A DNA stretch of 64,000 nt, from positions 864,001-928,000 of the forward strand of contig CBDBHR010000030.1 of assembly GCA_965205865.1 (NCBI GenBank), written 5' to 3'. Positions within the stretch are counted from its first letter, which is position 1. Each line of letters begins with the position of its first letter. Source of the DNA: a bacterium. Its GTDB lineage: Bacteria; SAR324; NAC60-12. Position numbers and translations under genes: made by a program. Below the pieces are notes generated by a model. The model was not told the origin of the DNA. It saw only the letters and a program-made list of their open reading frames with translations, and ran no database searches. Shown here in pieces: positions 1-39,745 of the stretch.

Positions 1-205
1 GGTAATAGGTATCAGTATGCTCCGGGGTGTTATCCGCGGGCCAGGTTATTGACCCGCCGTACTCAGGTGCTGTCACGACCTTACCAGTGGTAGGATCCGT
101 CACATACTTCTGGGCGGCAGCCGGACTGACCCAAAAGGCTGTCACCATCAGGGTGAGGGACAGCAGGATTGCACTGAAGGTTGATTTGCTTTTTTGATTT
201 TCCAT
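1..205 (-). CDS. ABC peptide/nickel-family substrate-binding protein, 5' part (runs off window start)
   Basis: Manual translation MENQKSKSTFSAILLSLTLMVTAFWVSPAAAQKYVTDPTTGKVVTAPEYGGSITW matches the N-terminus of the other SBP paralogs; signal peptide. Confidence 0.85.
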   Translation of the reverse strand, partial: MENQKSKSTFSAILLSLTLMVTAFWVSPAAAQKYVTDPTTGKVVTAPEYGGSITWPADNTPEHTDTYY

Positions 206-592
206 CTTTTTCCTTTCTTTTTTTTGATTAAAAACAAGATTTAGGAATGATTTAAAACCTGCTTTCGTTCCCGAAAGCACGTTCTCGACGATGCTTCTAC
301 TTTTTTGACGGTTCAGCCCGAACCTTTTTTTCATTTTTATCTTTTTCATGATAATTTCCTTTCCAAATACGATTGAATTAAACAGGGATTTCGAAAGGGA
401 TTTCGTCCCCCTACCCTGGCTTCTCTTATTTTTGGTCATCTCCATAATTTTTCCTTTCTTGTTATTTAGGTTGTGAGAATGATTCACCCACCAGGGAGCG
501 AATCGGAGTTTCGCGGCGGGCACGGCGCCTGCCACGGGGAACTCTCTGCAGAGGGCGAAAAGTTTCTTCGCGAGCATCTTCATCCGGACTAT

Positions 593-830
593 TTTTTGGA
601 TCAGAATGGGTCTTTTTTGAGGAAAATGAGCGTTTGGAAACCGAGCCCTCCTATTTATATAACACACCCAGAGCCAAAATATCACCAAAAAAATCAAATT
701 TTCTCAAAAATCTCCTGAAATCGCTCTCTGGCTTGGAAACCGAGCCCTTCTATTTACATAACGTACCAAGAGCCAGAATCTGACAAAAAAAATCAAATTT
801 TCTCAAAAATTCCCCGAAATCGCTCTCTGG
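593..830 (-). repeat. Sigma-3'-end/promoter repeat, 1 full + 1 partial copy
   Basis: Same ~137-bp unit as 9430-9720 and 38296-38709. Confidence 0.9.
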
Positions 831-1397
831 CGCGGTGCAACTGTTGGGCGATCATATCCTTTTCGGTCTTGGTCAGTTCCTTTCTAGGAAGCGCCAACTT
901 CTCGGCGGCAAGGGCTTCAAGGGACAGCCCGTCCCAATAGCAGCGGCGCAGCAGCCGAGCGGTCTGGGGATGCTCGTCTTCCAGTTGTCTCAGGGCCCCT
1001 CTGCCCGCTCAATCTTCTCTTCCTGCAATTCCGCCGACTGGGCCTGCCACCAGGCCTGCATAGAGCGCAGGTCATCCACCTCTTCCGGGGCAGCGAGTTC
1101 CGGCTGCCGTTTGTCACGTCTGATTTGGTCCAGCAGATGATTCTGAACGACTCTGTACAGCCAACCCAGGAAGGCTTTATCGGCCTCGCCTTGGAATTTC
1201 TCCAGCTTGCTCTCCCACAAATCCTTCCAGATTTCCTGAACCACCTCATCCGCCTGATGGAGGCTCCGATACTTGCCAATCAGCGATTGGGCAGTGTGGA
1301 CGATATATGCCCTGTAGTGTTGGTACAACTCCTCAAAAGCGTCTTCCTTCCCTTGAACGGACCCCTCCAGCAGTTCCCGCAATGGTTTCCGGTTCAT
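793..1397 (-). pseudogene. ECF sigma-70 factor, 1-bp deletion near 1000
   Basis: 605 bp vs 606 bp in intact copies; ORF stops at 990, C-terminus continues in another frame to the usual TGA at 793-795. Confidence 0.85.
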
Positions 1398-1418
1398 CGT
1401 TGGACTCGGTTTTGATTT

Positions 1419-1752
1419 TCAGCCAAGAACGCCCAAGAACAGCCTCAATATAGGAAAAGCAAGAGGGAAACGCAAGGTGGAAACGCAAGGTGGGGAAAAC
1501 TGGCCTCGCCATGGAAACCGTTTGCAACTGATTTGGAGTCCTTTTTGTTCTAATTGTTCGGCGACTGTCATAAGAACCTCGTGAGCCTCTTCATAGCTGA
1601 GCAGGTTTTTCACTTGCTGAACCACTTCCTCTTCTTTGAGGTGGGAACTGGCTTTGAATAAATAGTAGAGTACCTCCTCAAGATTCCGCAAACCACTGCC
1701 TTCTTCAAATAGTTTTTCAAACAAAGGCCAGATGACCGTGGCTAATTGAATG
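1419..1752 (-). pseudogene. Rpn/YhgA-family (PD-(D/E)XK) C-terminal fragment
   Basis: LEEVLYYLFKAS...EVLMTVAEQLEQKG resembles Rpn C-termini; near-identical copy at 24489-24783, shorter copies at ~20060-20139 and ~39380-39460. Confidence 0.65.
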
Positions 1753-4483: not shown

Positions 4484-5452
4484 CTAAGAAAAGGGGTTGA
4501 TCAGTCGGGCGAGGAATCCTCGTTTGCGTTTCATCTTCGCAGTGCCGTAACTGCCCTGACCTCCCCGCAGCCTGGGGTCAAGCAGGTCCCTCACCGCATC
4601 GCCGAACATGTTCAGACTGTAAACGGTAATAGTCAGGGCAAGGCCGGGCCAGAGCGCCAGCCAGGGGGCCATCTCCATGAACTCCCGCCCTTCCCGGCTG
4701 AGCATCCCTCCCCAGCTGGGAACCTTGAGGGGCAGCCCGAATCCGAGGAAGCTCAGCGATGCCTCGGCAATGATGACCCCGCCAATGTTGATCGAGAAGA
4801 CGATGATGATCGGCGGCATAATATTGGGCAGGACATGGCGGGTCAGGATATGGCGCGTGGGGGTGCCCACAGCCCTGGTTGCCAGAAAATAGTCATTCTC
4901 TTTAATACCCACCACGGCGCCACGGATGACTCGGGAGCCGCCAATACCTCCGGCGATCCCCAGGACCACGATGATCTGGAGGAGCCCCTGTCCCACGATG
5001 GACATGATGGTTAACAACAGGAGCAGACCCGGAAAAGCCATCCAGGCATCGACAAATCTCTGCACCGCCAGGTCCAATTTGCCACCAATGAATCCTGAAG
5101 TGCCGCCGATCAGGACCGCCACCACCACATTAACAGCGGTCGCTGACAGACCGACGACTATCGAAAGACGAGCCCCGACGATCAGGCGGCTCAGGAGGTC
5201 TCTCCCCAACTGGTCGGTACCCAGGAGATACCGGGCTGAGGAGCCAGTCAGCCGGTCTGCCAGGTGCATTTCCCAATATGGATAAGGAGCCAGAACATTG
5301 GCAAAGATCGCCACCAAAATGAAGAGCAAGACGATGATTCCGCAGAACGTCCCCAGTGGCTTCTCCCTCCACAGCCTGGTAAAGAAATCAGCCAGCCCGG
5401 CACGTCTCTTTGGCTCACTTTCTGCTGATGATATCCCTGTGGCATCACTCAT
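4484..5452 (-). CDS. DppC/OppC-type ABC permease
   Basis: LGTDQLGRDLLSR, EAA loop, GDAVRDLLDPR. Confidence 0.95.
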   Translation of the reverse strand: MSDATGISSAESEPKRRAGLADFFTRLWREKPLGTFCGIIVLLFILVAIFANVLAPYPYWEMHLADRLTGSSARYLLGTDQLGRDLLSRLIVGARLSIVVGLSATAVNVVVAVLIGGTSGFIGGKLDLAVQRFVDAWMAFPGLLLLLTIMSIVGQGLLQIIVVLGIAGGIGGSRVIRGAVVGIKENDYFLATRAVGTPTRHILTRHVLPNIMPPIIIVFSINIGGVIIAEASLSFLGFGLPLKVPSWGGMLSREGREFMEMAPWLALWPGLALTITVYSLNMFGDAVRDLLDPRLRGGQGSYGTAKMKRKRGFLARLINPFS

Positions 5453-5453
5453 A

Positions 5454-5540
5454 GTTTAGGTATTTAGGATGAAGGCTTTTAGGTATAAGGTATTAGGTGT
5501 CAGCTTTGCGCTAATACCTGAAACCTAACACCTAATACCT
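5454..5540. repeat. Short heptamer-like repeats in inverted arrangement (TAGGTAT / ATACCT)
   Basis: Several TTAGGTAT units followed by AATACCT/AACACCT units between permease genes. Confidence 0.6.
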
Positions 5541-5555
5541 TTGTCGCGCCAGCGA

Positions 5556-6521
5556 CTATTTATACCGAACCCTGGGGTCTAAGTACGGATAAATCAGGTC
5601 GATCATAAGATTGATCAGCACCACCCCGGTGGCGAAAAACAGGTTTACTCCGGAGACTACCGGGTAGTCTCTGTCTTTGAGGGCATCCAGCATGAGCTGA
5701 CCGATCCCCGGCAGGTTGAAGATGTTCTCCATGATCACGGCGCCCCCGACCAGCAGAGGCAACTGCAGGCCGATCAGGGACACTACCGGGATGAGGGCGT
5801 TCTTGAGGGTGTGCCGGATCACCACGACCCGCTCCCTGAGCCCCTTGGACCAGGCGGTGCGGATATAGTCCTGCCTGAGCACCTCAAGCATCATGGTACG
5901 CATCATCCGCATGGTGGCGGCAGAGGAGGCTGTTCCCAGGATCAGGCTAGGAATGATGAGAATCCCGAGATTCCCCAGCAGGTCTTCCGTGAAAGGAACC
6001 CACCGCATCGGTGGCGCCCAGCCCCACCAGATGGCCGGATAGATCATGACCATAATTGCCAGCCAGAAGTTGGGCGTTGCCATGCCGATGATGGCAACAG
6101 TGCGCCCCACGTAGTCGGCGGCCGTATCCTGGCGAATCGCCGAGTAGATGCCGACCGGCAGGGCTATCAAGAGCCCGATTACGATTGCCATGACGCCAAG
6201 CTCAATGGTTACTGGCAATCTACCTAATATCTTCTCCTCTACCGTCCAAGCGCCAACCAGCGACTCGCCCAGGGTGCCGTGCAGGAAGATGCCTCCTATC
6301 CAGCGTCCATACTGCACGTAGACAGGCACATCTAATCCCAGCATCCGCTCAAGAGTTTCACGGTCAATCTGACCCGTCGCGGAACCCATACTCGCCATCT
6401 TACCCAGCATGGCGTCGATGACGTCGCCCGGAATGAAGCGGACCGAGAGAAAGACCAGGATGGTTAATATAAACAAGGTGGGGATTATCAGCAATAACCG
6501 CCTGATGATATAGGCTCTCAT
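5556..6521 (-). CDS. DppB/OppB-type ABC permease
   Basis: [36 protein letters not shown]. Confidence 0.95.
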   Translation of the reverse strand: MRAYIIRRLLLIIPTLFILTILVFLSVRFIPGDVIDAMLGKMASMGSATGQIDRETLERMLGLDVPVYVQYGRWIGGIFLHGTLGESLVGAWTVEEKILGRLPVTIELGVMAIVIGLLIALPVGIYSAIRQDTAADYVGRTVAIIGMATPNFWLAIMVMIYPAIWWGWAPPMRWVPFTEDLLGNLGILIIPSLILGTASSAATMRMMRTMMLEVLRQDYIRTAWSKGLRERVVVIRHTLKNALIPVVSLIGLQLPLLVGGAVIMENIFNLPGIGQLMLDALKDRDYPVVSGVNLFFATGVVLINLMIDLIYPYLDPRVRYK

Positions 6522-6544
6522 GTGACACACCTCATTGCGATTTC

Positions 6545-7460: not shown

Positions 7461-9287
7461 CTAATAACCCATTGCTTCCTTCAGCTCACTATCAATCCAG
7501 AGCCGTGAGAACATCGCGGTTCTGTCCATGCCTCCCATGCTTAGCTCCCCGTTATAGCCTTTGACCCACGACTGGTGGGCCATAAAGTGCGGGACCCTTC
7601 CGCCCCACAGGATCCAGTGGTTTGCCGCGACATACTGATCTGCCTCTCTGACCCACCGCTTGTATTCATCGAGGGTGGTGGCCTCTTGCGTCGCTGCCCA
7701 CAAACGGTCCATCTCGGGGTCCTGCACGCCGGTGGGGTTAAACGCGTTGGTCGAGACAAACTGCAGCAGCGCGAGGGGGCCGTAGTCGAAGGCTGAGACG
7801 TAGCTGGCAATATGTTCGTACTCGTTCTCACGAATAAGATAATCCACCTGGGCCGTACCCGGAGTGAGGACCGTGACCTCCACGCCAATCTCACCGAAAT
7901 GCTGTGCCGCCAGTTCGAAGAAGTTCAGATCCATCCAATCAGTCACCATGAGGTTGGTTGAGAATCGAATGCCGTCCGCCCCGCGTGGATATCCGGCTTC
8001 ATCGAGCAGGCGCTCGGCCCTCTCTGGATCATAGGTGTAGTATTGCTTCACCTCCTCCGGCCACTCTTCGAATGGCGTGACATAGCCGACCAAATTGGCC
8101 CCGACGAATCCCTGCGGTGTGATGTCCACCCAGCCCTGCCAGACGGTTGCGTTGATCGTCTCCAGGTCGAGCGCCAGCTGCAGCGCATGACGCACCCTGA
8201 TGTCGTTCATCGGTGGCTTTGTCTGATTGAGAGCGAACGACGTCTCCGAACGGTGCGAGTATGGCCATAGCACGATTTCGGGGTTGGTTTGCTGGAGCCT
8301 CTCTGCCTGGTCGATGGTGCGGATCTGCGAGTCGCCAAAAGAGCCGAGGAGGTCGACCTGACCCGAGCGCAGCGCCGCCAGTTGTGTTGCCGAATCGGTG
8401 ATGACCAGAGCCACCACCTTGTCGACATACGGCAAGCGGTTCTGCGGGTATTTTTCGTCGTAGCCCCAGTAGTCGGGATTCTTGCTCCACGTAATAGAGC
8501 TGCCCTCGACCCAGTCGGTCAGCATCAGCGGTCCGGTGCCGACCAGGTTGCGCCAGTCCGTCACGTCGCCGTGAGCCTCGATTACCTCGGGCGGATATAC
8601 GTAGACGGAGTGGTCGGTAAGCATAGTCCTGAGGGCATCGAAGTTCACCTTGCTCAGTCGAAAGACAACGGTTGATCCTTCGGCGGTTACCGATTCGATG
8701 CCAATATCGTCGATGAAACTCCAGGCGGCTCCTTCGGGCTTCTCGGTGAAACCGCTGCCCAGACCCAACATACGGTGAAAGTTGTATTCGACATCCTTGG
8801 CAGTTAGCTTGCGACCGTTCATCGGCGCCTTATTGTGCCAGCGAACACCGTCACGGATGTGGAAGGTATAGGTGAGGCCGTCCGGGGAAATATCCCAGCT
8901 TTCAGCTAGGTGCCCTCTTAGGGCAAATTCAGGCTTCCACGATGTTCTCAAGTCAAATACGTCCCTATCTATTGCCCAGTCCAGGATGCCGAGCTTCTCT
9001 ACCACACCGGAGCTGGCGGCCGCATTGAAGTGTTTTAACCCGGTGTCGGGGTTCGCCGGCTCAACTTGCATCGCGTAGGTGATTGTCCCGCCATACTCTG
9101 GCGCGCTCACTACTTTTCCAGTGGTGGGATCCGTCACATACTTCTTCTCAGCAGCAGCCGCCGGGCTGACCCAGAGGGTCGCGCCCAGAATGAAAGCCAG
9201 CAGCACCGAGAGGAGTTTCATGGCAGACCTGGGGCCTGCCGGGTTCAGCCCCACGAAGGAGGCGACAAGTTTTTTTATAATACTCAT
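7461..9287 (-). CDS. ABC peptide/nickel-family substrate-binding protein
   Basis: LAESWDISPDGLTYTFHIRDGVRWH, GTGP, KNPDYWG; start MSIIKK after AAGAGGT RBS, signal peptide. Confidence 0.95.
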   Translation of the reverse strand: MSIIKKLVASFVGLNPAGPRSAMKLLSVLLAFILGATLWVSPAAAAEKKYVTDPTTGKVVSAPEYGGTITYAMQVEPANPDTGLKHFNAAASSGVVEKLGILDWAIDRDVFDLRTSWKPEFALRGHLAESWDISPDGLTYTFHIRDGVRWHNKAPMNGRKLTAKDVEYNFHRMLGLGSGFTEKPEGAAWSFIDDIGIESVTAEGSTVVFRLSKVNFDALRTMLTDHSVYVYPPEVIEAHGDVTDWRNLVGTGPLMLTDWVEGSSITWSKNPDYWGYDEKYPQNRLPYVDKVVALVITDSATQLAALRSGQVDLLGSFGDSQIRTIDQAERLQQTNPEIVLWPYSHRSETSFALNQTKPPMNDIRVRHALQLALDLETINATVWQGWVDITPQGFVGANLVGYVTPFEEWPEEVKQYYTYDPERAERLLDEAGYPRGADGIRFSTNLMVTDWMDLNFFELAAQHFGEIGVEVTVLTPGTAQVDYLIRENEYEHIASYVSAFDYGPLALLQFVSTNAFNPTGVQDPEMDRLWAATQEATTLDEYKRWVREADQYVAANHWILWGGRVPHFMAHQSWVKGYNGELSMGGMDRTAMFSRLWIDSELKEAMGY

Positions 9288-9313
9288 AATAACCTCTTTT
9301 ATTTGAGGGTTTT

Positions 9314-9430
9314 GAGAATGATTCACCCGCTGTGGAGCGAATCGGAGTTTCGTGGCGGGCACGGCGTCTGCCACAGGGAACTCTCTGCAGAGGGCGAAAA
9401 GTTTCTTCGCGAGCATCTTCATCCGGACTA
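9314..9430 (-). promoter_or_regulatory. Conserved multi-hairpin 5' leader of SBP genes
   Basis: Six copies (~475, 9314, 18778, 23486, 29781, 38180); four hairpins, one compensatory change. Confidence 0.55.
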
Positions 9431-9720
9431 TTTTTTTGACCAGAATGGGTCTTTTTTGAGGAAAATGAGCGTTTGGAAACCGAGCCCTTCTATTTATATA
9501 ACGTACCAAGAGCCAGAATCTGACAAAAAAAATCAAATTTTCTCAAAAATCTCCTGAAATCGCTCTCTGTCATCCGGACTATTTTTTTGACCAGAATGGG
9601 TCTTTTTTGAGGAAAATGAGCGTTTGGAAACCGAGCCCTTCTATTTATATAACGTACCAAGAGCCAGAATCTGACAAAAAAAATCAAATTTTCTCAAAAA
9701 TTCCCCGAAATCGCTCTCTG
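9430..9720 (-). repeat. Sigma-3'-end/promoter repeat x2 (151-bp period)
   Basis: CATCCGGACTA at 9420 and 9571. Confidence 0.9.
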
Positions 9721-10601
9721 GCGCGGTGCAACTGTTGGGAGATCATATCCTTTTCGGTCTTGGTCAGTTCCTTTCTAGGAAGCGCCAACTCCTCGGCGGC
9801 AAGGGCTTGCAGGGACAGCCTGTCCCAATAGCAGCGGCGCAGCAGCCGAGCGGTCTGGGGATGCTCGTCTTCCAGTTGTCTCAGGGCCCCTCCTACCCGC
9901 TCAATCTTCTCTTCCTGCAATTCCGCCGACTGGGCCTCCCACCAGGCCTGCATAGAGCGCAGCTCATCCACCTCTTCCGGGGCAGCGACTTCCGGCTGCC
10001 GTTTGTCACGTCTGATTTGGTCCAGCAGATGATTCTGAACGACTCTGTACAGCCAACCCAGGAAGGCTTTATCGGCCTCGCCTTGGAATTTCTCCAGCTT
10101 GCTCTCCCACAAATCCTTCCAGATTTCCTGAACCACCTCATCCGCCTGATGGAGGCTCCGATACTTGCCAATCAGCGATTGGGCAGTGTGGAAGGTAAAG
10201 GTGAGGCCGTCCGGGGAAATATCCCAGCTTTCCACCAGACCCCCTGTTCTGGCAGAGTCAGGTATGTAAAAGGCTGTAAGGTCATATTCGTCCCTATCTA
10301 CTGCCCAGTTAAGATTGCCTAGCATCTCGCCAACTTGCTCGTTCAACTTCATCGTTGGATGCCCGAACCAGGCGTCAGAACCCGCAGGCTCGTTTCCTAA
10401 GCCCACGGTCAGTGTCCCACCATACTCTGGCGCGCTCACCACCTTACCCGTGGTTGGGTCGGTCACGTACTTCTTCTCCGCAGCGGCTGTCGGGCCGACC
10501 CAGAGGGCGGTCACGCCCAGGGTGAGGGCCAACAGCACCGAGAAGAGTTTCATCGAAGGCCTGGGGCCTGCCGGGTTCAGCCCCACTACAGAGGCAAACA
10601 T
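9684..10601 (-). CDS. In-frame chimera: SBP N-terminus fused to ECF sigma regions 2-4
   Basis: ...SPDGLTFTFH|TAQSLIGKYRSLHQADEVVQE...; junction at 10187-10192. Confidence 0.85.
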   Translation of the reverse strand: MFASVVGLNPAGPRPSMKLFSVLLALTLGVTALWVGPTAAAEKKYVTDPTTGKVVSAPEYGGTLTVGLGNEPAGSDAWFGHPTMKLNEQVGEMLGNLNWAVDRDEYDLTAFYIPDSARTGGLVESWDISPDGLTFTFHTAQSLIGKYRSLHQADEVVQEIWKDLWESKLEKFQGEADKAFLGWLYRVVQNHLLDQIRRDKRQPEVAAPEEVDELRSMQAWWEAQSAELQEEKIERVGGALRQLEDEHPQTARLLRRCYWDRLSLQALAAEELALPRKELTKTEKDMISQQLHRARERFRGIFEKI

Positions 10602-11417: not shown

Positions 11418-11419
11418 TG

Positions 11420-13858: not shown

Positions 13859-13953
13859 ATTTCAATCGAGAAAATAAAAGACAAATTAATATTTGATCGC
13901 GCCAAGGTAAATCCGAAGCGTTGGGATCGGGAGAAATCCCGTGAAATTTGTTA

Positions 13954-23458: not shown

Positions 23459-23599
23459 AATAACCTCTTTTATTTGAGGGTTTTGAGAATGATTCACCCG
23501 CTGTGGGGCGAATCGGAGTTTCGCGGCGGACACGACGTCTGCCACAGGAAGCTCTCCAAGAGGGCGAAAAGTTTCTTCGCGAGCATCTTCATCCGGACT

Positions 23600-23872: not shown

Positions 23873-24441
23873 GCGCGGTACAACTGTTGGGCGATCCGGT
23901 GCTTTTCCGTTTGGCTCAGTTCCTCTATGGGAAGCGCCAACTCCTCGGCGGCAAGGGCTTGCAGGGACAGCCTGTCCCAATAGCAGCGGCGCAGCAGCCG
24001 AGCGGTCTGGGGATGCTCGTCTTCCAGTTGTCTCAGGGCCCCTCCTACCCGGTCAATCTTCTCTTCCTGCAATTCCGCCGACTGGGCCTCCCACCAGGCC
24101 TGCATAGAGCGCAGCTCATCCACCTCTTCCGGGGCAGCGACTTCCGGCTGCCGTTTGGCACGTCTGATTTGGTCCAGCAGATGATTCTGAACGACTCTGT
24201 ACAGCCAACCCTGGAAGGCTTTATCGGCCTCGCCTTGGAATTTCTCCAGCTTGCTCTCCCACAAATTCTTCCAGATTTCCTGAACCACCTCATCCGTCTG
24301 ATGGAGGCTCCGATACTTGCCAATCAGCGATTGGGCAGTGTGGACGATATATGCCCTGTAGTGTTGGTACAACTCCTCAAAAGCGTCTTCCTTCCCTTGA
24401 ACGGACCCCTCCAGCAGTTCCCGCAATGTTTTCCGGTTCAT
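23836..24441 (-). CDS. ECF sigma-70 factor
   Basis: 201 aa, near-identical to 19352-19957. Confidence 0.92.
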   Translation of the reverse strand: MNRKTLRELLEGSVQGKEDAFEELYQHYRAYIVHTAQSLIGKYRSLHQTDEVVQEIWKNLWESKLEKFQGEADKAFQGWLYRVVQNHLLDQIRRAKRQPEVAAPEEVDELRSMQAWWEAQSAELQEEKIDRVGGALRQLEDEHPQTARLLRRCYWDRLSLQALAAEELALPIEELSQTEKHRIAQQLYRARERFRGIFEKI

Positions 24442-26505: not shown

Positions 26506-26528
26506 ATTAAGGCTTTTCGCGCCAGCGA

Positions 26529-27488: not shown

Positions 27489-27514
27489 GTGACACTCCTC
27501 ATCGCGATTTCCCT

Positions 27515-27830
27515 GTCATTGCCAACCCTCTTTTGTCATTGCGAGCCCCGATTCTATTGTCCCGACTCGGAAGTTCGTTGCATAAATCGCATCGTGTTCT
27601 GGAGGGGGCCTGTGGTTCGACAGGCTCACCACGAACGGGAAAATCCAACACCCCGTGAACGGGAAAATCCAACACTCCGTTCGCCCTGAGCCCGTCGAAG
27701 GGCAGCCGAAGGCTTTCTCTTTGTTAAGCGCACTTCTGAGACAGTAGACTATCGGGGCTTCGTCAAGTTCCTTCACTGCCTCTTCGCTGCACTCAGAGCT
27801 TCGGTTCAGGACAAGCCTCGCAATGACAGT
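27515..27830. repeat. REP-like palindromes between SBP and permease
   Basis: GTCATTGCGAG...CTCGCAATGAC, GTTCGACAGGCTCACCACGAACGG, 22-bp direct repeat GAACGGGAAAATCCAACAC. Confidence 0.65.
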
Positions 27831-27933
27831 AAGAAAGGCCCCCTCTCATTATTCAATGAGTAAGGGAGCTGGGAAGCCTGAGCCTCCCAGCTCCCTTTTG
27901 CCCTATGGTCAGCAGCCACAAGGGGTGAAACCC

Positions 27934-29754
27934 CTAATGACCCATTGCTTCCTTTAGCTCACTATCAATCCAGAGGCGGGAGAAGATGGTGGTATATTGA
28001 CCGGCTGCCAACCTCTTTTCACCGTTATAACCTATGACCCACGGCTGCACCGCAGCATACTGTGGGGCCATAGGACCCCATATCGTCCAGAACTTCTCTA
28101 TCCCATACTGATCCAGCTCTTTAACTATCCTGTTCTGCTCCTCGAGGGTGGTAGCGGCTGCGGCGGCCTTATGCATGGCGTCATAATCCGGGTCTTGTGG
28201 GTTGGAGGTGTTCCATGATAGGCCCATCGTATATTTCATCTGCACTACCAATGGGAACCACGTATTGGCCGCTTCCGCACTAATCATTTCGAAATCCCTC
28301 TCAGTTCTTCTAGAGGCAAAGACAGCTGATGGCACTACATCAATCTCCACATCAACGCCAATCTTATTCCAGTATGAAGCGACTAATTCTACATAGTTCA
28401 AATCGTACCGCTCGAGGTGCATCAACCCGGTCTTAAATCTAATGCCGTCGGCGCCGCGAGGATACCCGGCCTCATCAAGCAACGCTTCGGCACCTTCCGG
28501 GTCGTAGTCAAAGACCTTCTTGACATCTTCGGGCCAATCTTCAAATTGGGTGACAACCGCTGAAAAAGAACGGTTTTGCTGCCCCTGAGGTATTATATCT
28601 GCATAACCCTTATAGTAGGCGTTGTTGATTGTCTCGAGGTCAATTGCCATCTGCATTGCCTTGCGCACCCTGATGTCGTCAAAGGGCGGCAACTGAACGT
28701 TCATGCCAAAAGAATTTTCCGACCGTTCTGACGACGTGTGGATTACGAGTTCGGGGTTGGTCCGCTGGAGGCTCTCTAGCTGGTCGAGACTCCTCATTTG
28801 AGCCGCCCCGATCACACCTATGTAATCAACCTTACCCGTGCGCAGTGCCGCCATATATGTTGCCACTTCGGGCATAATCAGGGCCCTTAACCGGTCAATA
28901 TAGGGCAAGCGGTTCTCCGGGTACTTTTCGTCGTAGCCCCAGTAGTCAGGATTCTTGTCCCAGGTGACAGAGCTGCCCTTGACCCAGTCAGTCAGCATAA
29001 AGGGACCGGTGCCGACCAGGTTCCTCCAATCCGTAACGTCCCCGTGTTCCTTGATTACCTCGGGGGGATATATCCAGGCAAGCCTGCCGTCGAGGATATG
29101 AGTCAGCGCACCGAGGTTTAGCTCCTTCAGCTTAAAAACAACCGTCCATTTGTCGGTGGCCGTTATCGATTCCACTTGCACACCCTTCCACTCAGCATGT
29201 TCGCTACCTTCGGTGAAACCGCTGCCGAGTCCCAAGATACGGTGATAGTTGTACTCGATATCGTCGGCAGTCAGCTCCCTACCGTTCATCGGTGGCTTAT
29301 CGTGCCAGTGAACGCCCTGGCGGATGTGGATGGTATAGGTGAGGCCGTCCTCGGAAATATCCCAGCTTTCCGCCAGAGACCCTATCGTGTTAGTTGGAAC
29401 GTTGAGAAACATGAAATCATATTTGTCCCTGGGCGTTGCCCAGTCCCCAATGGCCAGCTTCTCTAAAACGCCAGAGACGTAGGCCATCGCCCACATACCA
29501 CTGACCACGGTGTCAGGACCTGCCGCCTCTTCTTTTCGGGCGAAGGTCAATGTCCCGCCATACTCAGGTGCGGTCACGACCTTACCTGTGCTGGGGTCCG
29601 TCACATACTTCTTCTCCGCAGCGGCTGTCGGGTCGACCCAGAGGGTTGCGCCCAGAATGAAAGCCAGCAGCACCGAGAGGAGTTTCATGGCAGACCTGGG
29701 GCCTGCCGGGTTCAGCCCCGCGGTGGAGGCGACAAGTTTTTTTATAATACTCAT
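27934..29754 (-). CDS. ABC peptide/nickel-family substrate-binding protein
   Basis: Family-5 SBP motifs; shared leader. Confidence 0.95.
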   Translation of the reverse strand: MSIIKKLVASTAGLNPAGPRSAMKLLSVLLAFILGATLWVDPTAAAEKKYVTDPSTGKVVTAPEYGGTLTFARKEEAAGPDTVVSGMWAMAYVSGVLEKLAIGDWATPRDKYDFMFLNVPTNTIGSLAESWDISEDGLTYTIHIRQGVHWHDKPPMNGRELTADDIEYNYHRILGLGSGFTEGSEHAEWKGVQVESITATDKWTVVFKLKELNLGALTHILDGRLAWIYPPEVIKEHGDVTDWRNLVGTGPFMLTDWVKGSSVTWDKNPDYWGYDEKYPENRLPYIDRLRALIMPEVATYMAALRTGKVDYIGVIGAAQMRSLDQLESLQRTNPELVIHTSSERSENSFGMNVQLPPFDDIRVRKAMQMAIDLETINNAYYKGYADIIPQGQQNRSFSAVVTQFEDWPEDVKKVFDYDPEGAEALLDEAGYPRGADGIRFKTGLMHLERYDLNYVELVASYWNKIGVDVEIDVVPSAVFASRRTERDFEMISAEAANTWFPLVVQMKYTMGLSWNTSNPQDPDYDAMHKAAAAATTLEEQNRIVKELDQYGIEKFWTIWGPMAPQYAAVQPWVIGYNGEKRLAAGQYTTIFSRLWIDSELKEAMGH

Positions 29755-29895
29755 AATAACCTCTTTTATTTGAGGGTTTTGAGAATGATTCACCCGCTGT
29801 GGGGCGAATCGGAGTTTCGCGGCGGGCACGGCGCCTGCCACGGGGAACTCTCTGCAGAGGGCGAAAAGTTTCTTCGCGAGCATCTTCATCCGGAC

Positions 29896-30321
29896 TATTT
29901 TTTTGACCAGAATGGGTCTTTTTTGAGGAAAATGAGCGTTTGGAAACCGAGCCCTTCTTTATATAACGTACCAAGAGCCAGAATATCACCAAAAAAATCA
30001 AATTTTCTCAAAAATTTCCTGAAATTGCTCTCTGTCATCCGGACTATTTTTTTGACCAGAATGGGTCTTTTTTGAGGAAAATGAGCGTTTGGAAACCGAG
30101 CCCTTCTATTTATATAACGTACCAAGAGCCAGAATATCACCAAAAAAATCAAATTTTCTCAAAAATTTCCTGAAATTGCTTTCTTTTTTTGACCAGAATG
30201 GGTCTTTTTTGAGGAAAATGAGCGTTTGGAAACCGAGCCCTCCTATTTACATAACGTACCAAGAGCCAGAATATGACAAAAAAATCAAATTTTCTCAAAA
30301 ATTCCCCGAAATCGCTCTCTG
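29896..30321 (-). repeat. Sigma-3'-end/promoter repeat x3
   Basis: GACCAGAATGGG at 29906, 30054, 30191. Confidence 0.9.
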
Positions 30322-30890
30322 GCGCGGTGCAACTGTTGGGCGATCCGGTGCTTTTCCGTTTGGCTCAGTTCCTCTATGGGAAGCGCCAACTTCTCGGCGG
30401 CAAGGGCTTCAAGGGACAGCCCGTCCCAATAGCAGCGGCGCAGCAGCCGAGCGGTCTGGGGATGCTCGTCTTCCAGTTGTGTCATAGCCTCTCCTGCCCG
30501 CTCAATCTTCTCTTCCTGCAATTCCGCCGACTGGGCCTGCCACCAGGCCTGCATAGAGCGCAGGTCATCCACCTCTTCCGGGGCAGCGAGTTCCGGCTGC
30601 CGTTTGTCACGTCTGATTTGGTCCAGCAGATGATTCTGAACGACTCTGTACAGCCAACCCAGGAAGGCTTTATCGGCCTCGCCTTGGAATTTCTCCAGCT
30701 TGCTCTCCCACAAATCCTTCCAGATTTCCTGAACCACCTCATCCGCCTGATGGAGGCTCCGATAATTGCCAATCAGCGATTGGGCAGTGTAGACGATATA
30801 TTCCCTGTAGTGTTGGTACAACTCCTCAAAAGCGTCTTCCTTCCCTTGAACGGACGCCTCCAGCAGTACCCGCAATGGTTTCCGGTTCAT
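30285..30890 (-). CDS. ECF sigma-70 factor
   Basis: 201 aa paralog; upstream flank diverges at ~30936. Confidence 0.92.
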   Translation of the reverse strand: MNRKPLRVLLEASVQGKEDAFEELYQHYREYIVYTAQSLIGNYRSLHQADEVVQEIWKDLWESKLEKFQGEADKAFLGWLYRVVQNHLLDQIRRDKRQPELAAPEEVDDLRSMQAWWQAQSAELQEEKIERAGEAMTQLEDEHPQTARLLRRCYWDGLSLEALAAEKLALPIEELSQTEKHRIAQQLHRARERFRGIFEKI

Positions 30891-33737: not shown

Positions 33738-34696
33738 CTAAGCGAAGGGGTTGAGCAGTCTGGAGAAGAATCCTCGTTTGCGTTTCACCATCGCGGTGCC
33801 GTAACTGCCCTCTCCGCCCCTGAGCCTGGGATCGAGCAGATCGCGCATGGCATCGCCGAACATGTTGAAGGAGTAGACGACAATCGTCAGGCAAAGCCCC
33901 GGCCACAGGGCTAGATGGGGCACTATCTCCATGTACTGACGTCCTTCCCGGCTGAGCAGACCGCCCCAACTGGGAACCTTGAGGGGCAGACCGAATCCCA
34001 GGAAGCTCAAAGAAGCCTCAGAGATAATCACCCCGCCGATGTTGATGCTGAAGATGATGATGAGGGGGGCCACAATATTGGGCAGGACATGCTGGATAAA
34101 TATTCTCCCCTGGGTGCAGCCAATCGCCTTGGCTGCCTGAAAATACACATTCTCTTTGATACCAATCACAGCGCTGCGGACAATTCTTGAGGCGCTGATG
34201 CCCCCGACGACCCCCAGGACCACGATGATCTGCAGAACCCCCCGTCCCACGATGGACATGATGGTCAACAGCAAGAGCAGTCCCGGAAAAGACATCCAGG
34301 CGTCGACAAAGCGCTGCACCGCCAGGTCCAGTTTGCCGCCAAGGAATCCGGAAATGCCGCCGATCAGGACAGCGACGACAATATTAAGAGTGGTCGCTGC
34401 CAGACCGACCGTTAACGAAAGACGAGCCCCGTGGATCAGGCGGCTGAAGAGGTCTCGCCCTATATGGTCGGTCCCCAGAAAATACTGGGCTGACGGGCCC
34501 TGCAGCATGTCTGACATGTGTATTTCCATATAACCTAAGGGGCCAAAACATCGGCAAAGAGCGCCACCACCATAAAGAGCAAGACGATCATCCCACAGAA
34601 CGTCCCCAGCGGCTTCTCCTTGAGAAGCCTGCTGAAGAAATCCACAAACCGGCCCCGTCGCTTGGGCTCACGGATGGGGAAGGATTTCTCACTCAT
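33738..34696 (-). pseudogene. DppC-type permease, frameshift near 34535
   Basis: 5' part MSEKSFPIREPKRRG...LAP hits a stop; remainder open 33738-34529. Confidence 0.85.
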
Positions 34697-35651
34697 ACCG
34701 CACCCTCGGGTCCAGATAGGGATAAATCAGGTCGATCATTAGATTGACCCCTACAACCAAAGTGGCGAAAACCAGGTTGACTCCGGAGACCACCGGGTAG
34801 TCTCGGTCATTGAGGGCATTTACCAAGAGACGCCCGATCCCTGGCAGGTTGAAGATGTTCTCCATGATCACCGCGCCGCCGACCAGGATCGGCAACTGCA
34901 GGCCGATCAGGGTGATAACCGGGATGAGGGCATTTTTGATGGTGTGCCGGATAATCACGACCCGCTCCCTGAGCCCCTTGGACCAGGCGGTGCGGATATA
35001 GTCCTGCCGGAGCACCTCGAGCATCATGGTACGCATCATGCGCATGGTGGCGGCCGCTGAAGCCGTTCCCAGGATCAGGCTAGGAATAAAGAACCCCCAG
35101 AGATTCCCTAGCGGGTCCTCTGTGAAAGAAACAAGTTCCAGCGGCGGCGCCCAGCCCCACCAGATTGCTGGGAAAATCATGACCATAATTCCCAGCCAGA
35201 AGTTAGGGGTTGCCAGGCCGATGATGGCGATGCTACGCCCTACGTAGTCGGCGGCCGTATCCTGGCGAATCGCCGAGTAGATGCCGACGGGCAGCGCTAT
35301 CAAGATTCCGATTACGATTGCCATGACGCCGAGCTCAATGGTTACCGGCAGTCTATCTATTATCTTCTCCTCCACCGCCCCACGGCCCATCAGTGATTCG
35401 CCAAGGGTGCCGTGCAGGAAAATACCTCCTATCCAGCGTGCATACTGCACGTAGACAGGCACGTCTAATCCCAGCCGACGCTCAAGAGCTTCACGGTCAA
35501 TTTCCCCAAAGCCACCCGCGTAATCCATCCTACCCACTATTACGTCTATTACATCGCCCGGGATGAAGCGGACGGAGAGAAAGACCAGGATGGTCAATAT
35601 AAACAAGGTGGGGATTATCAGCAATAACCTCCTGATTATATAGGCTCTCAT
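34689..35651 (-). CDS. DppB/OppB-type ABC permease
   Basis: Full-length, canonical motifs. Confidence 0.95.
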   Translation of the reverse strand: MRAYIIRRLLLIIPTLFILTILVFLSVRFIPGDVIDVIVGRMDYAGGFGEIDREALERRLGLDVPVYVQYARWIGGIFLHGTLGESLMGRGAVEEKIIDRLPVTIELGVMAIVIGILIALPVGIYSAIRQDTAADYVGRSIAIIGLATPNFWLGIMVMIFPAIWWGWAPPLELVSFTEDPLGNLWGFFIPSLILGTASAAATMRMMRTMMLEVLRQDYIRTAWSKGLRERVVIIRHTIKNALIPVITLIGLQLPILVGGAVIMENIFNLPGIGRLLVNALNDRDYPVVSGVNLVFATLVVGVNLMIDLIYPYLDPRVRYE

Positions 35652-35674
35652 GTCACACACCTCATTACGATTTC

Positions 35675-36265
35675 CCCCGTCATTCCCGCGAAAAGCCTGC
35701 CCCGGACTGGATCCGGGGCCGGAATCCACCTTCCACGTCTTTCCGGCCCCTTCCACTGAAGGGCGCGGCACTCTCTAAGGTGCGAATGACCCCTGCCAAG
35801 AAACTGGCCTCTCACCGTTTTGGGGAGTCCAGAGGGGTGAAACCCCTTTGAAACGGGGGTTCAAGGGGGTGTCCCCCTTGATTCCCCCCATCATTCCGCC
35901 GAAAGGCGGAATCCACCTCCCCCGTCATTGCGGTGAAAACCGCAATCCACTTAGACGATCCCCTTGCCCGGCTCACACGGCACTCCCTAAGGTGCGCATG
36001 ACCCTTGCCAAAAAAACCTGGCCTCTCACCGTTTTGGGGAGTCCAGAGGGGTGAAACCCCTTTGGAACGGGGGTTCAAGGGGGTGTCCCCCTTGATTCTC
36101 CCCGTCATTCCGCCGAAAGGCGGAATCCAGAGTAATTTCAAATGGTTGCGTTTTCTGGATTCCGGGTCTCCGCCCGGAATGACAGTGAGAAAGCGCTGCT
36201 CGCAATGACATTCCACTCAACCCCGTCATTGCGAGCCCCGATTTATCGGGGCGTGGCAATCTCGT
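35675..36265. repeat. REP cluster with ~150-bp direct repeat
   Basis: ~35767-35915 repeated at ~35979-36130; ATTCCGCCGAAAGGCGGAATCCA palindromes. Confidence 0.8.
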
Positions 36266-36353
36266 CGCCCTCTCCAGGGGTATGGGAGCTGGGAAGCCTG
36301 AACCTCCCAGCTCCCTTTTTCCCTAAGGTCACAAGCCACAAGGGGTGAAACCC

Positions 36354-38153
36354 CTAATGACCCATTGCTTTCTTCAGCTCACTATCAATCCAGAGGCGGG
36401 CGTAGACGGTGTTATACTGACCGCTTCCCAGGAAGTATTCATTGTTGTAGCCTATGACCCACGGCTGGACTGGCAAGAAAATTGGGGGCATAGGACCAAA
36501 TATCGCCCAGAACTTCTCTATCGCATACTGGTGCATCTCTCCAAGAATCCTGTTCTGCTCCTCGATGGTGGTAGCGGCTCCGGCGTCTTCAAACTTGGCG
36601 TTATACCACGAGTCGTTGACATTGGAGGTGTTCCATGGTGCGTCCTTCTGATAGCGCTGTAGGATTACCGATAGGATCCACCTCCCGGCCGCTTCCGCAC
36701 TGATCATTTCGAAATCGTCCTCACTTCTTCTAGCGACAAAGTCCGCTGTTGTCACTACCTGAATCTCGACATCAACGCCAATCTTATTCCAGTATGAAGC
36801 GACTAATTCTACATAGTTCAAATCATAGACATCGCGGTGGTAATGGGTGACCTTGAATCGAACGCCGTCCGCGCCGCGCTTGTATCCGGCCTCATCAAGC
36901 AACGCTTCGGCACCTTCCGGGTCGTAGTCAAAGACCTTCTTGACATCTTCGGGCCACTCTTCAAAATTCGGGATAGCCTCTGTCATATTACGGTTTACCA
37001 GCCCCTGGGGTGTCACATCTGCATAACCCTTATAGTAGGCGTTGTTAATTGTCTCGAGGTCAATGGCCATCTGCATTGCCTTGCGCACCCTGATGTCGTC
37101 AAAGGGCGGCAACTTAACGTTCATACCAAAACCATTCACCGAGTCTCGAGAATACGAATCTATCACGAGTTCGGGGTTAGTCCGCTGCAGGCTCTCTACC
37201 TGGTCGAGAGTCCTGAATGTGTATCCAATATCAACCTTACCTGTGCGCAGTGCCGCCAGTTGTGTTGCCACTTCTGGCATAAACAGGGCCCTTAACTGGT
37301 CAATATACGGCAGGCGGTACTCCGGGTATTTTTCGTCGTAGCCCCAGTAGTCAGGATTCTTGTCCCAGGTGACAGAACTGCCCTCGACATACTCGGTCAG
37401 CATCATGGGTCCGGTGCCGACCAGGTTCCTCCAGTCCGTAACGTCCCCGTGTTCCTTGATGACCTCGGGGGGGTATATCCAAGCAGCGTTCTCGTCGAGG
37501 ATAGCAGCCAGCGCTTGGAGGTTTAGCTGCTTCAGCTTAAAAACAACCGTCCACTTGTCGGTGGCTTCTATCGATTCAAATTCCATACCGGCAAAGCCTA
37601 CAGCATGTTCGCTACGTTCGGTGAAACCGCTGCCCATACCCAACAGACGGTGATAGTTGTATTCGACGTCGTATGCATCTAGCTCCCGACCGTTCATCGG
37701 TGGTTTATCATGCCAGTGAACGCCCTGTCGGACTTTGATGACATACGTCAGTGGGTCGGGCTGCGACCAGCTTTCCGCCAGTTGACCTCTCGTGTTAGTT
37801 GGAACGTTGTGATACTGGAAGTCTTCTATGTCCCTGGGCGTTGCCCAGTCCATCATGACCAGTTTCTCGTTGACGCCACCGCAGTAGCTTTGTGACCATA
37901 CACCAGAGATCACGGCGTCAGGACCCGCCGGCTCATCTGCTAGGGCGAAGGTGAATGTCCCGCCGTATTCAGGAGCAGTCACGACCTTACCTGTGCTGGG
38001 GTCGGTGACATACTTCTTCTCAGCCGCGGCTGTCGGGCCGACCCAGAGGGTTGCGCCCAGAATGAAAGCCAGCAGCACCGAGAGGAGTTTCATGGCAGAC
38101 CTGGGGCCTGCCGGGTTCAGCCCCACGAAGGAGGCGACAAGTTTTTTACTCAT
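36354..38153 (-). CDS. ABC peptide/nickel-family substrate-binding protein
   Basis: Family-5 SBP motifs; closest to 27934-29754. Confidence 0.95.
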   Translation of the reverse strand: MSKKLVASFVGLNPAGPRSAMKLLSVLLAFILGATLWVGPTAAAEKKYVTDPSTGKVVTAPEYGGTFTFALADEPAGPDAVISGVWSQSYCGGVNEKLVMMDWATPRDIEDFQYHNVPTNTRGQLAESWSQPDPLTYVIKVRQGVHWHDKPPMNGRELDAYDVEYNYHRLLGMGSGFTERSEHAVGFAGMEFESIEATDKWTVVFKLKQLNLQALAAILDENAAWIYPPEVIKEHGDVTDWRNLVGTGPMMLTEYVEGSSVTWDKNPDYWGYDEKYPEYRLPYIDQLRALFMPEVATQLAALRTGKVDIGYTFRTLDQVESLQRTNPELVIDSYSRDSVNGFGMNVKLPPFDDIRVRKAMQMAIDLETINNAYYKGYADVTPQGLVNRNMTEAIPNFEEWPEDVKKVFDYDPEGAEALLDEAGYKRGADGVRFKVTHYHRDVYDLNYVELVASYWNKIGVDVEIQVVTTADFVARRSEDDFEMISAEAAGRWILSVILQRYQKDAPWNTSNVNDSWYNAKFEDAGAATTIEEQNRILGEMHQYAIEKFWAIFGPMPPIFLPVQPWVIGYNNEYFLGSGQYNTVYARLWIDSELKKAMGH

Positions 38154-38295
38154 AATAACCTCTTTTATTTGAGGGTTTTGAGAATGATTCACCCGCTGTG
38201 GGGCGAATCGGAGTTTCGCGGCGGGCACGGCGCCTGCCACGGGGAACTCTCTGCAGAGGGCGAAAAGTTTCTTCGCGAGCATCTTCATCCGGACT

Positions 38296-38709
38296 ATTTT
38301 TTTGACCAGAATGGGTCTTTTTTGAGGAAAATGAGCGTTTGGAAACCGAGCCCTTCTATTTATATAACGTACCAAGAGCCAGAATATCACCAAAAAAATC
38401 AAATTTTCTCAAAAATTTCCTGAAATTGCTTTCTTTTTTTGACCAGAATGGGTCTTTTTTGAGGAAAATGAGCGTTTGGAAACCGAGCCCTTCTATTTAT
38501 AGAACGTACCAAGAGCCAGAATATCACCAAAAAAATCAAATTTTCTCAAAAATTTCCTGAAATTGCTTTCTTTTTTTGACCAGAATGGGTCTTTTTTGAG
38601 GAAAATGAGCGTTTGGAAACCGAGCCCTTCTATTTATAGAACGTACCAAGAGCCAGAATATCACCAAAAAAATCAAATTTTCTCAAAAATTTCCTGAAAT
38701 TGCTTTCTG
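38296..38709 (-). repeat. Sigma-3'-end/promoter repeat x3 (137-bp period)
   Basis: GACCAGAATG at 38304, 38441, 38578. Confidence 0.95.
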
Positions 38710-39278
38710 GCGCGGTACAACTGTTGGGCGATCCGGTGCTTTTCCGTTTGGCTCAGTTCCTTTCTAGGAAGCGCCAACTCCTCGGCGGCAAGGGCTTCCA
38801 GGGACAGCCCGTCCCAATAGCAGCGGCGCAGCAGCCGAGCGGTCTGGGGATGCTCGTCTTCCAGTTGTGTCATAGCCTCTCCTGCCCGCTCAATCTTCTC
38901 TTCCTGCAATTCCGCCGACTGGGCCTGCCACCAGGCCTGCATAGAGCGCAGGTCATCCACCTCTTCCGGGGCAGCGAGTTCCGGCTGCCGTTTGTCACGT
39001 CTGATTTGGTCCAGCAGATGATTCTGAACGACTCTGTACAGCCAACCCAGGAAGGCTTTATCGGCCTCGCCTTGGAATTTCTCCAGCTTGCTCTCCCACA
39101 AATCCTTCCAGATTTCCTGAACCACCTCATCGGCCTGATGGAGGCTCCGAAACTTGCCAATCAGCGATTGGGCAGTGTGGAGGATATATGCCCTGTAGTG
39201 TTGGTACAACTCCTCAAAAGCCTCTTCCTTCCCTTGAACGGACCCCTCCAGCAGTACCCGCAATGGTTTCCGGTTCAT
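38673..39278 (-). CDS. ECF sigma-70 factor
   Basis: 201 aa, C-terminus RARKQFQEIFEKI. Confidence 0.92.
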   Translation of the reverse strand: MNRKPLRVLLEGSVQGKEEAFEELYQHYRAYILHTAQSLIGKFRSLHQADEVVQEIWKDLWESKLEKFQGEADKAFLGWLYRVVQNHLLDQIRRDKRQPELAAPEEVDDLRSMQAWWQAQSAELQEEKIERAGEAMTQLEDEHPQTARLLRRCYWDGLSLEALAAEELALPRKELSQTEKHRIAQQLYRARKQFQEIFEKI

Positions 39279-39469
39279 CGTTGGACTCGGTTTTGATTTT
39301 CAGCCAAGAACGCCCAAGAACAGCCTCAATATAGGAAAAGCAAGAGGGAAACGCAAGGTGGGGAAAACCGGCCTTGCCATGGAAACCGTTTGCAACTGAT
39401 TTGGAGTCCTTTTTGTTCTAATTGTTCGGCGACTGTCATAAGAACCTCGTGAGCCTCTTCTATCATCGT

Positions 39470-39745
39470 AAATCCGGGGACAGTTACTAATTAATTGCAA
39501 TGGATTCCTTCATTTGATAATGGTTGTAAATAATTATCGAGCATTGAATTTTCACTTCAGCAATGGGAGGTAAGCTAGCCAGGTTAGCGAGAGTGGTACT
39601 TCCAGGGGTCCCCCATCATGTCACCCAAGGAGGGGTTCGCTCCATAAAAATCTTTTCAAGTGACGAGGATCGCAGAGAGTATCTCTCTCTGCTCAACGCG
39701 CATGGAGAAAAAGAAAGATAAAAATTAGTAACTGTCCCCGGATTT
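39470..39745 (+). mobile_element. 276-bp TIR/REP-bounded RAYT remnant
   Basis: Identical to 20149-20424. Confidence 0.85.

Follow-up and report, generated by a model that had tools for sequence, protein, structure and literature searches.

The window analysed here, a stretch of 64,000 nucleotides (G000:C30:864001-928000) from a 4.7-Mb SAR324 genome (G000), holds six modules of an array in which near-identical heads precede diverged genes for substrate-binding proteins (SBPs). A head measures 1.1-1.7 kb and comprises the gene of an extracytoplasmic function (ECF)-type sigma factor, tandem repeats, a structured leader and a Sec signal peptide; the rest of the SBP gene is referred to as the body. 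Nine sigma loci were found in the genome by tblastn, which provides the genome-wide count called for in an earlier note on this DNA. Six of them (M1-M6) lie in the window, where every sigma position given in that note proved to hold a copy or a remnant on the minus strand, the strand of all modules. M0 is located just left of the window (sigma at C30:856086-856649) and has lost its first 14 codons. These seven modules belong to contig C30 (1.38 Mb); M7, whose sigma has an in-frame TAG, and M8 are on C15, a contig of 15.8 kb. Five of the nine sigma copies are intact, M0, M1, M2 and M7 being disrupted. The only other genome of the genus that was compared (G001, OZ242383.1), a closed single-contig chromosome of 4.26 Mb, has six sigma copies or fragments inside 65 kb. 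Three of these are full-length, one of them without an ATG start, and modules Ga, Gb, Gc, Gd and Ge were used for comparison.

The tandem repeats have periods of 99, 137 and 151 nt. Their unit consists of the last ~36 nt of sigma (block A), the invariant core CTCTTGGTACGTTATATAAATAG (block B), which is preceded by either of two alleles, TTGTCAGA or GGTGATA, and a 71-nt spacer (block C). One to four units are present per module, and they are joined in three junction types, each restarting within 5 nt of one point in the 3' end of sigma. The features of the six window modules are as follows.

793..1397, minus strand: sigma pseudogene of M1, with a frameshift and one TGA inside; the open reading frame (ORF) at 990-1397 covers amino acids 1-135, the C-terminal part lies in another frame at 793-999; Sigma70_r2 match.
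2..697, minus strand: 5' part of the M1 SBP gene, which runs off the window; alternative N-terminus MEMTKNK..., the identity breaking earlier than elsewhere, directly after leader hairpin 3.
9684..10601, minus strand: fused ORF of M2, a deletion scar in which the N-terminal fragment of another SBP (signal peptide and KKYVTDP..YGG, ~10193-10601) is joined to sigma from nt 98 onwards (9684-10192).
9419..9720, minus strand: tandem repeat of M2, two times 151 nt, made of the sigma 3' end, promoter-like block B and block C.
7461..9536, minus strand: SBP_bac_5 gene of M2 (longest ORF), with a leader unit (9288-9408) and a half unit (9212-9275) inside the 5' end of the ORF; start codon uncertain.
4484..6530, minus strand: permease genes of M2, OppB-like at 5556-6530 and OppC-like at 4484-5452, with no ATPase gene after them.
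19352..19957, minus strand: intact sigma of M3, 201 amino acids, with PF04542 and PF07638 matches.
18887..19351, minus strand: repeat region of M3, two units A-B(-C), the second interrupted by an insertion of ~200 nt resembling a MITE (miniature inverted-repeat transposable element).
18676..18872, minus strand: leader of M3, a full three-hairpin unit (18752-18872) and a half unit (18676-18739) immediately before the signal-peptide ATG.
18534..18644, minus strand: zone in which the identity of M3 with most modules breaks, from the end of the signal peptide into KKYVTDP..YGG (maximum-likelihood breakpoints, module positions 1714-1824).
16934..18886, minus strand: SBP_bac_5 gene of M3, with an orthologue in G001 that is 98.2% identical at the nucleotide level and has no sigma.
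23836..24441, minus strand: intact sigma of M4, 201 amino acids (Pfam and tblastn).
21617..23835, minus strand: remainder of M4, with the repeat region (23546-23835, two B blocks), the leader (23383-23578) and the SBP_bac_5 gene (21617-23545); permease genes are absent after the SBP.
30285..30890, minus strand: intact sigma of M5, 201 amino acids, with just 46 nt upstream common to other modules.
29886..30321, minus strand: tandem repeat of M5, three times 137 nt; the orthologue Ga has one unit.
25537..29889, minus strand: SBP_bac_5 (27934-29889), OppB-like (26529-27488) and OppC-like (25537-26505) genes of M5, the body being 97.5% identical to Ga.
38673..39278, minus strand: intact sigma of M6, 201 amino acids (Pfam and tblastn).
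38297..38708, minus strand: tandem repeat of M6, three times 137 nt; the orthologue Gc has one unit.
33738..38402, minus strand: SBP_bac_5 (36354-38402), OppB-like (34689-35771) and short OppC-like (33738-34529, 263 amino acids) genes of M6, the body being 98.9% identical to Gc.

Judged from these genes, the array is composed of paralogous, ATPase-less operons for ATP-binding cassette (ABC) importers of the peptide/opine type, in the Opp/Dpp/Nik (PepT) group. All full SBPs belong to family 5 (cluster C), with PF00496 matches at E 1e-64 to 1e-75. NikA, DppA, Opp4A and CntA were the best NCBIfam matches, all far under their cutoffs, so that no specificity can be assigned. Both OppB/OppC-type permeases are present in M2, M5 and M6; the pair is disrupted in M3 and missing from M4. 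No ABC_tran ORF, as expected for OppD/F-type ATPases, was found in any module, the window's sole ABC_tran ORF belonging to a Liv-type system (44815-45630). An additional OppC fragment lies at 11365-11952. Between the SBP and permease genes of several modules we further observed G/C-rich tandem repeats (6641-6843, 35885-35950 and 62053-62248, with periods of 96, 34 and 79 nt).

The heads are far more alike than the bodies that they precede, as the earlier note had stated for six blocks of sigma, repeats and leader in the window. In sliding windows over the nine modules (means of 36 pairs), identity was 0.92-0.99 from inside sigma to the signal peptide and 0.45-0.82 in the SBP body. Segment by segment, with five modules of G001 included, sigma copies were 94-99% identical and the leader with signal peptide 92-100% in most pairs, whereas bodies reached 59-71%, with the exception of M5 and M6, which are 80% alike. 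In M2-M6, five of the six window modules, an identical signal peptide is followed by the KKYVTDP..YGG motif and the identity then ends abruptly, as had been noticed, within a conserved N-terminal zone; in M1 it breaks earlier. Synonymous divergence (dS) of sigma was 0.00-0.088 with a mean of 0.044 (36 pairs, nine full-length copies from both genomes), compared to 0.29-1.35 for 28 pairs of paralogous SBP bodies. The heads are indeed younger or more homogenised than the bodies, as had been proposed, and equal divergence of the two parts was not seen. For the four pairs of SBP bodies that are orthologous between the genomes, dS was 0.02-0.045, with a ratio of nonsynonymous to synonymous divergence (dN/dS) of 0.14-0.43. 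Since the dS of sigma is about that of the body orthologues, the heads coalesce at about the time when the two genomes split.

The bodies themselves are members of a large family. By tblastn with the SBP we found 162 high-scoring segment pairs (HSPs) in G000, and 107 paralogues that are near-full-length. On a FastTree phylogeny of the mature parts with 107 tips, from which frameshifted M7 was omitted, the eight sigma-linked tips need eight parsimony changes, the maximum, and 83% of 2000 label shuffles gave the same value. Sigma-linked bodies form no clade and are scattered over the family tree; most module bodies have their nearest relative among dispersed paralogues that lack sigma, at tree distances of 0.33-1.2. 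Plain tandem duplication of whole operons, with a head preserved by strong purifying selection, would suit modules that are adjacent and share one orientation. Such an origin is nevertheless highly improbable: synonymous divergence of sigma is 10-30 times below that of the bodies, the non-coding repeats and the leader are likewise 92-100% identical, sigma is weakly constrained (dN/dS 0.90), and the bodies are not one another's closest relatives.

Recombination among the heads was pervasive. Four-gamete failures occurred at 490 of 857 informative site pairs in sigma and at 690 of 1778 in the leader, and variant blocks are common to copies of both genomes in differing combinations. The 433-nt leader of M2, for instance, is 100% identical to that of M8, while the two sigma genes share only 95%. 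Three sigma subtypes exist, each of them in both genomes, and M5 is 98% identical to its orthologue Ga and 97% to M6. The earlier note had located the exchange at the N-terminal motif. Recombination or gene conversion as such is upheld by the four-gamete result, but no single junction exists. Maximum-likelihood breakpoints at the 3' side fall into at least four classes (module positions ~1550 in M1, ~1578 in M7, 1672 in Gd and 1714-1824 in the others), identity being 92-100% on their left side and 57-69% on their right. The 5' edges are ragged. The sequence shared upstream of the sigma ATG amounts to 11 nt in Gd, 46 nt in M5, 88 nt in Ge, 182 nt in M3 and M6, and 340-535 nt in M1, M4, M7, M8 and Ga; in other copies the block begins inside sigma, at nt 37, 43, 98 or 274. 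This raggedness indicates deletion or illegitimate joining, and M0 resembles a ~1-kb deletion derivative of an M8-like arrangement. A small gene pair, by eye a HicA/HicB-like candidate, lies upstream of the M8 head (C15:8769-10268), and the same stretch of 287 nt borders on the truncated sigma of M0 on C30.

The comparison of strains, also proposed in the earlier note, revealed different pairings of heads and bodies in G001. The order of the modules is inverted between the two genomes. M5 and Ga, and likewise M6 and Gc, are orthologous modules that keep their sigma and are 88-100% identical in every 60-nt window across the head-body junction. The SBP orthologues of M3 and M8 in G001 (98.2% and 98.3% identical) have no sigma and are headed by another element, cassette II, which means that pairings were altered recently. 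A sigma head was thus replaced at the M3 orthologue, where cassette II borders on a partial block B, after which come C and the leader. For M8, the entire operon of 3983 nt is 95.9% identical to its orthologue and the head alone differs; the first ~180 nt of the SBP gene are 68-83% alike and the remainder 92-100%, which shows that the exchange terminated at the motif. The junction of cassette II with sigma in Gd lies 11 nt before the ATG. The bodies of Gb, Gd and Ge have no orthologue among the modules of G000; the best match of Ge (90.5%) lies 335 kb away and has no head.

Cassette II measures ~240 nt and combines a TTGACA...TAGAAT-like promoter with conserved hairpins and a stem that has a U-run behind it; its end at ...CAGAGACCTGAATAGTTAC is always sharp. 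We counted 150 blastn HSPs and 40 near-full copies in G000, at ~80% identity, mostly directly 5' of SBP_bac_5 genes and sometimes as partial tandem copies. Examples flank the array (C30:836307-836536 and C30:935130-935348), none being found within the window, and in G001 copies lie at C1:3316534-3316890, 3327400-3327754 and 3353191-3353541. RNAalifold gave a conserved multi-stem fold, and no Rfam match was obtained. The element is a candidate family of promoter-plus-attenuator or small-RNA-like leaders.

False head-body junctions through collapsed or chimeric repeats are extremely improbable. It is true that the 15.8-kb contig, which carries two modules, terminates in repeats, and that public short-read contigs over M4 are too fragmented to bridge the junction. 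However, the independent closed genome G001 shows the same architecture with continuous junctions at M5/Ga and M6/Gc, seven modules lie inside the 1.38-Mb contig, and the head copies, being 1-8% different, can be told apart. The locus was partly present in 20 of 24 listed public runs, six of them RNA libraries labelled 'sponge metagenome'. Two RNA and two other runs over M4 yielded short contigs only, giving no transcript ends and no pieces across the head-body junction. Those of the RNA libraries represented parts of sigma, 313 nt upstream, and the SBP, for which DNA carry-over is possible.

Our overall reading, which we consider probable though well short of certain, is of heads that are homogenised and swapped by gene conversion or other recombination within one clustered array, over bodies that are old paralogues, and of an inferred regulon of sigma, which is taken up below. 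The comparisons above show that frequent non-reciprocal homologous recombination among array members, by gene conversion and unequal crossing-over, keeps the heads near-identical, and that whole heads were exchanged or lost before particular SBP genes after the split of the sister genomes. The 3' end of an exchange lies where homology ends, in a zone of leader, signal peptide and KKYVTDP..YGG that shows ancestral conservation across ~40 paralogues (75-87% at the nucleotide level). The 5' endpoints probably stem from deletion or illegitimate joining.

Movement could also have taken place on the side of the bodies. Sigma-headed sites would then be fixed expression sites, into which SBP bodies, together with their permeases, move from dispersed paralogues by double recombination, with leader/signal peptide and permeases as homology arms. 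The closest relatives of the bodies are indeed mostly dispersed paralogues without sigma, the permease genes are 77-92% identical between modules and could serve as the second arm, and the array forms a single locus. We regard this as unlikely since the operon of the M8 orthologue is conserved over 3983 nt at 95.9% with the head alone differing, and since the head remnant (part of B, plus C) beneath the replacing element at the M3 orthologue speaks for replacement of a head, not import of a body. Furthermore, the closest dispersed relatives are distant (0.33-1.2) and a recent import of a body is not visible.

The cassette had been called portable, which our data did not confirm. All 19 matches to the B core in the genome (up to 4 substitutions allowed) and all nine sigma copies belong to one array, at C30:853-904 kb plus the 15.8-kb contig. 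An autonomous or mobilised element, that is a transposon-like or retro-copied cassette of sigma and promoter that inserts before SBP genes, is accordingly very unlikely in our view. The ragged 5' ends with a constant 3' part do resemble 5'-truncated copies, the three types of tandem-unit junction restart within 5 nt of one point in the sigma 3' end, and a group II intron with a reverse transcriptase (RT) lies within the array.

13989..16040, plus strand: group II intron inserted antisense in the OppB gene of M3, whose C-terminal fragment is at 13576-13905; Rfam matches RF02005 and RF00029, RT ORF at 14514-15905.

Because of its antisense orientation in OppB, this intron is not spliceable from that mRNA. 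Against such an element stand the block itself, which contains no transposase, integrase or other recombinase ORF, the position of its 3' edge, which varies within coding sequence, the absence of any copy outside the array, and the internal mosaic, which matches homologous exchange; the relic ORF upstream of sigma is not matched by the local PDDEXK_2 transposase either. No recombinase of its own, defined ends, target duplications or dispersed copies were found for the block, while terminal repeats were not searched for systematically.

The PD-(D/E)XK 'transposase' gene in question (PDDEXK_2, Rpn/YhgA-like; 2675-3610, minus strand) lies between M2 and M1 and has a Glu/Ala-rich repeat tail; tblastn with it gave 22 HSPs genome-wide, and two in the array region of G001. 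The relic ORF (...EEAHEVLMTVAEQLEQKG...) had been considered as a PDDEXK_2/Rpn C-terminus, which was dropped when tblastn with the local PDDEXK_2 protein gave no match. The MITE-like repeat of ~200 nt in M3 (~18966-19164, between blocks B and C) carries TTATATAAATAG at both flanks and has ~45 genomic copies with 91-97% identity.

As to the sigma protein, all four intact window copies matched the Sigma-2 domain (regions 2.1-2.4; PF04542, E 2.7e-10 to 4.1e-10, 40 bits with a cutoff of 24), whereas Pfam's own models for region 4 gave no match in sigma. The NCBIfam model TIGR02937 scored 63 bits against a cutoff of 42.9 over residues 19-183, and in phmmer sigma residues 17-190 aligned with residues 25-179 of the ECF SigE/RpoE chain of PDB 2q1z, with a short insertion in region 4. 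We take sigma to be a genuine ECF-type protein because of these latter two results. With ~200 amino acids, Sigma-4 present and regions 1.1 and 3 absent, it conforms to ECF group 4. Co-encoding of a cognate anti-sigma factor is typical for ECF sigma factors, yet not universal. The earlier observation that no anti-sigma gene is adjacent held: a Pfam scan of 51 neighbouring ORFs, in which very small ORFs were not covered exhaustively, detected no anti-sigma domain, and the region directly 3' of sigma is occupied by the repeats. In a collection of 5.8 billion proteins the sigma family forms 40 clusters, each at least 78% identical to the query or a frameshifted version of it, and at least 8 further large contigs with this sigma are represented there. 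'Divergent' database relatives at 49-83% identity were rejected as distant homologues, being frameshifted copies. Outside the genus, the protein search gave generic ECF matches of ~30% only. The Gb sigma remnant had been considered an old escaped copy; this was rejected because it is 93-99% identical to the other copies across the homologous 333 nt.

Sigma factors of the ECF type are often autoregulated via an ECF-type promoter of their own. Block B is a candidate ECF-like promoter (TTGTCA-N17-CGTTAT), and the sigma protein may recognise this repeated core. Since the B core is confined to heads, the near-identical sigma copies would act in trans on every head and so form one small closed regulon. 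Redundancy would then relax selection on each copy and yield pseudogenes while the promoter-leader part stays in each module. All 14 modules have kept the leader, one or more B blocks and nt 274-606 of sigma, and the 5' part of sigma is often lost; a regulon acting in trans would explain both this retention and the weak constraint per copy. The number of units differs between orthologues, with three in M5 and M6 and one in Ga and Gc. A bolder version, which we offer as a speculative possibility, would see in the head an expression amplifier complete in itself, which combines an ECF sigma free of anti-sigma with the only promoters that this sigma has in the genome, and which serially captures members of the >100-member SBP family by homology-anchored recombination. 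The regulon would be private and trans-complementing, and promoter dose would be tuned by rapid changes in unit copy number (one or three in orthologues).

Several findings weigh against homogenised and swapped heads under a common sigma. Over the 36 pairs of full-length copies, dN/dS of sigma was 0.90. By region, the sigma-2 core had a value of 0.37, sigma-4 one of 0.73 and the N-terminus with the linker one of ~2, all from small counts. Four of the nine copies in G000 are disrupted and frameshifted versions occur in other assemblies too. Given the dN/dS of ~0.9 and the many disrupted copies, sigma could be in decay and carried along passively within the conversion tract. The '-35' part of the candidate ECF promoter occurs as two alleles, and a scan for sigma-70 promoters and terminators at 18500-20400 gave nothing above shuffle expectation on the coding strand. 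Some modules are degenerate, with OppB split by the antisense intron in M3, no permeases in M4 and a short OppC in M6. Finally, without an outgroup no gain or loss can be given a direction.

The leader and signal peptide had been described as part of the cassette. This could not be maintained, since the 135-nt leader occurs with 75-87% identity at ~35-40 SBP loci without sigma; to judge from these sequences, leader and signal peptide are ancestral to ~40 paralogues and not specific to the head. By nhmmer, G000 contains 96 leader units or half units; SBP genes are often preceded by one to three of them in tandem, with a half unit next to the ATG of the signal peptide. Every leader unit has its own strong ribosome-binding site (Shine-Dalgarno) and ATG, which makes the SBP start codon uncertain. 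To examine the fold, 37 units were aligned after removal of seven with insertions and of seven of the nine near-identical module copies. Three hairpins were supported, 93.1% of 888 cells being paired, compared to 35-47% in slid controls. Compensatory change was seen at 8 leader pairs, against 4.0 ± 1.2 in shuffles, and none of 500 shuffles reached 8. The many G-U pairs show that the structure belongs to the sense-strand RNA, and as the spacing of the units is not a multiple of three, they are not a translated repeat. A covariance model of the leader matched G000 77 times and G001 49 times, but no site in 39 further genomes of the family and order, to which stricter filters were applied; its restriction to the genus is thus judged among 41 searched genomes. 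Rfam has no family for head or leader at E<=1, nor at gathering score in the window; a sub-threshold match to SorX (E 0.2) was disregarded.

Comparable arrangements are known in part. Concerted evolution by partial gene conversion among paralogous operons likewise keeps one segment near-identical by non-reciprocal recombination while the ligand-binding part diverges, and produces mosaic variants. Here, however, the homogenised part is the head, with regulator gene, promoter-like repeats, leader and signal peptide, the bodies are phylogenetically scattered instead of recent duplicates, and heads are swapped for a second head type between sister genomes. In homology-facilitated illegitimate recombination during natural transformation, one end is anchored by homology and the other is illegitimate. 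The heads are similar in having one edge in homology (leader, signal peptide, motif) and a ragged one, but their ragged 5' edges may be later deletions, as in M0. Iron-uptake systems of the FecI type and the ECF sigma/anti-sigma pairs linked to polysaccharide utilisation loci in Bacteroides encode an ECF sigma immediately upstream of an operon for nutrient uptake, whose dedicated activator it presumably is. In these known cases every locus has a distinct sigma of its own, paired with a cognate anti-sigma or transducer, whereas the present array has nine near-identical copies, many of them broken, and no anti-sigma was found.

The upstream-homology-box genes of Borrelia, with OspE/F-like leader peptides, reportedly lie on cp32 prophage plasmids and encode surface lipoproteins. 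A conserved upstream region and leader peptide are said to be joined there to unrelated or diverged mature parts, in many copies and with recombination. The shared block there is not known to include a regulator gene or a tandem promoter-like array, in which it differs from the heads. Putative mobile promoters (Nijveen, Matus-Garcia and van Passel 2012, PMC3575422) are highly similar upstream regions before different coding sequences in one genome; no mechanism is known for their spread, and RNA motifs may be carried with them. That screen excluded paralogous downstream genes and promoters reaching into the coding sequence. It would have excluded the present block, which differs in reaching into the coding sequence, in being longer than 1 kb, in having a sigma gene and in its confinement to a single locus. 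Our literature search found no described multicopy sigma-headed SBP array, which does not prove that none is in print.

The array is a clear natural example of transport operons in which regulatory heads and ligand-binding bodies are modules that can evolve separately. Regulator gene, promoter-like repeats, RNA leader and export signal are copied as one piece over old paralogues and, between sister genomes, swapped for another head type. Should the link between sigma and the B core hold true, the array would show how a symbiont wires several uptake specificities to one signal in short evolutionary time, and it would offer a compact orthogonal sigma/promoter pair. Both genus-restricted leader elements, the three-hairpin unit as well as cassette II, may be new cis-regulatory RNAs by which sponge symbionts control nutrient uptake.

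Elsewhere in the window, a type I-C-like CRISPR-Cas locus at 50110-57027, among whose scanned ORFs no cas1 or cas2 was found, carries cas3 (HD and helicase), cas5d, csd1/cas8c, cas7 and a cas4-like ORF of 111 amino acids, followed by a small repeat array at 56713-57027.

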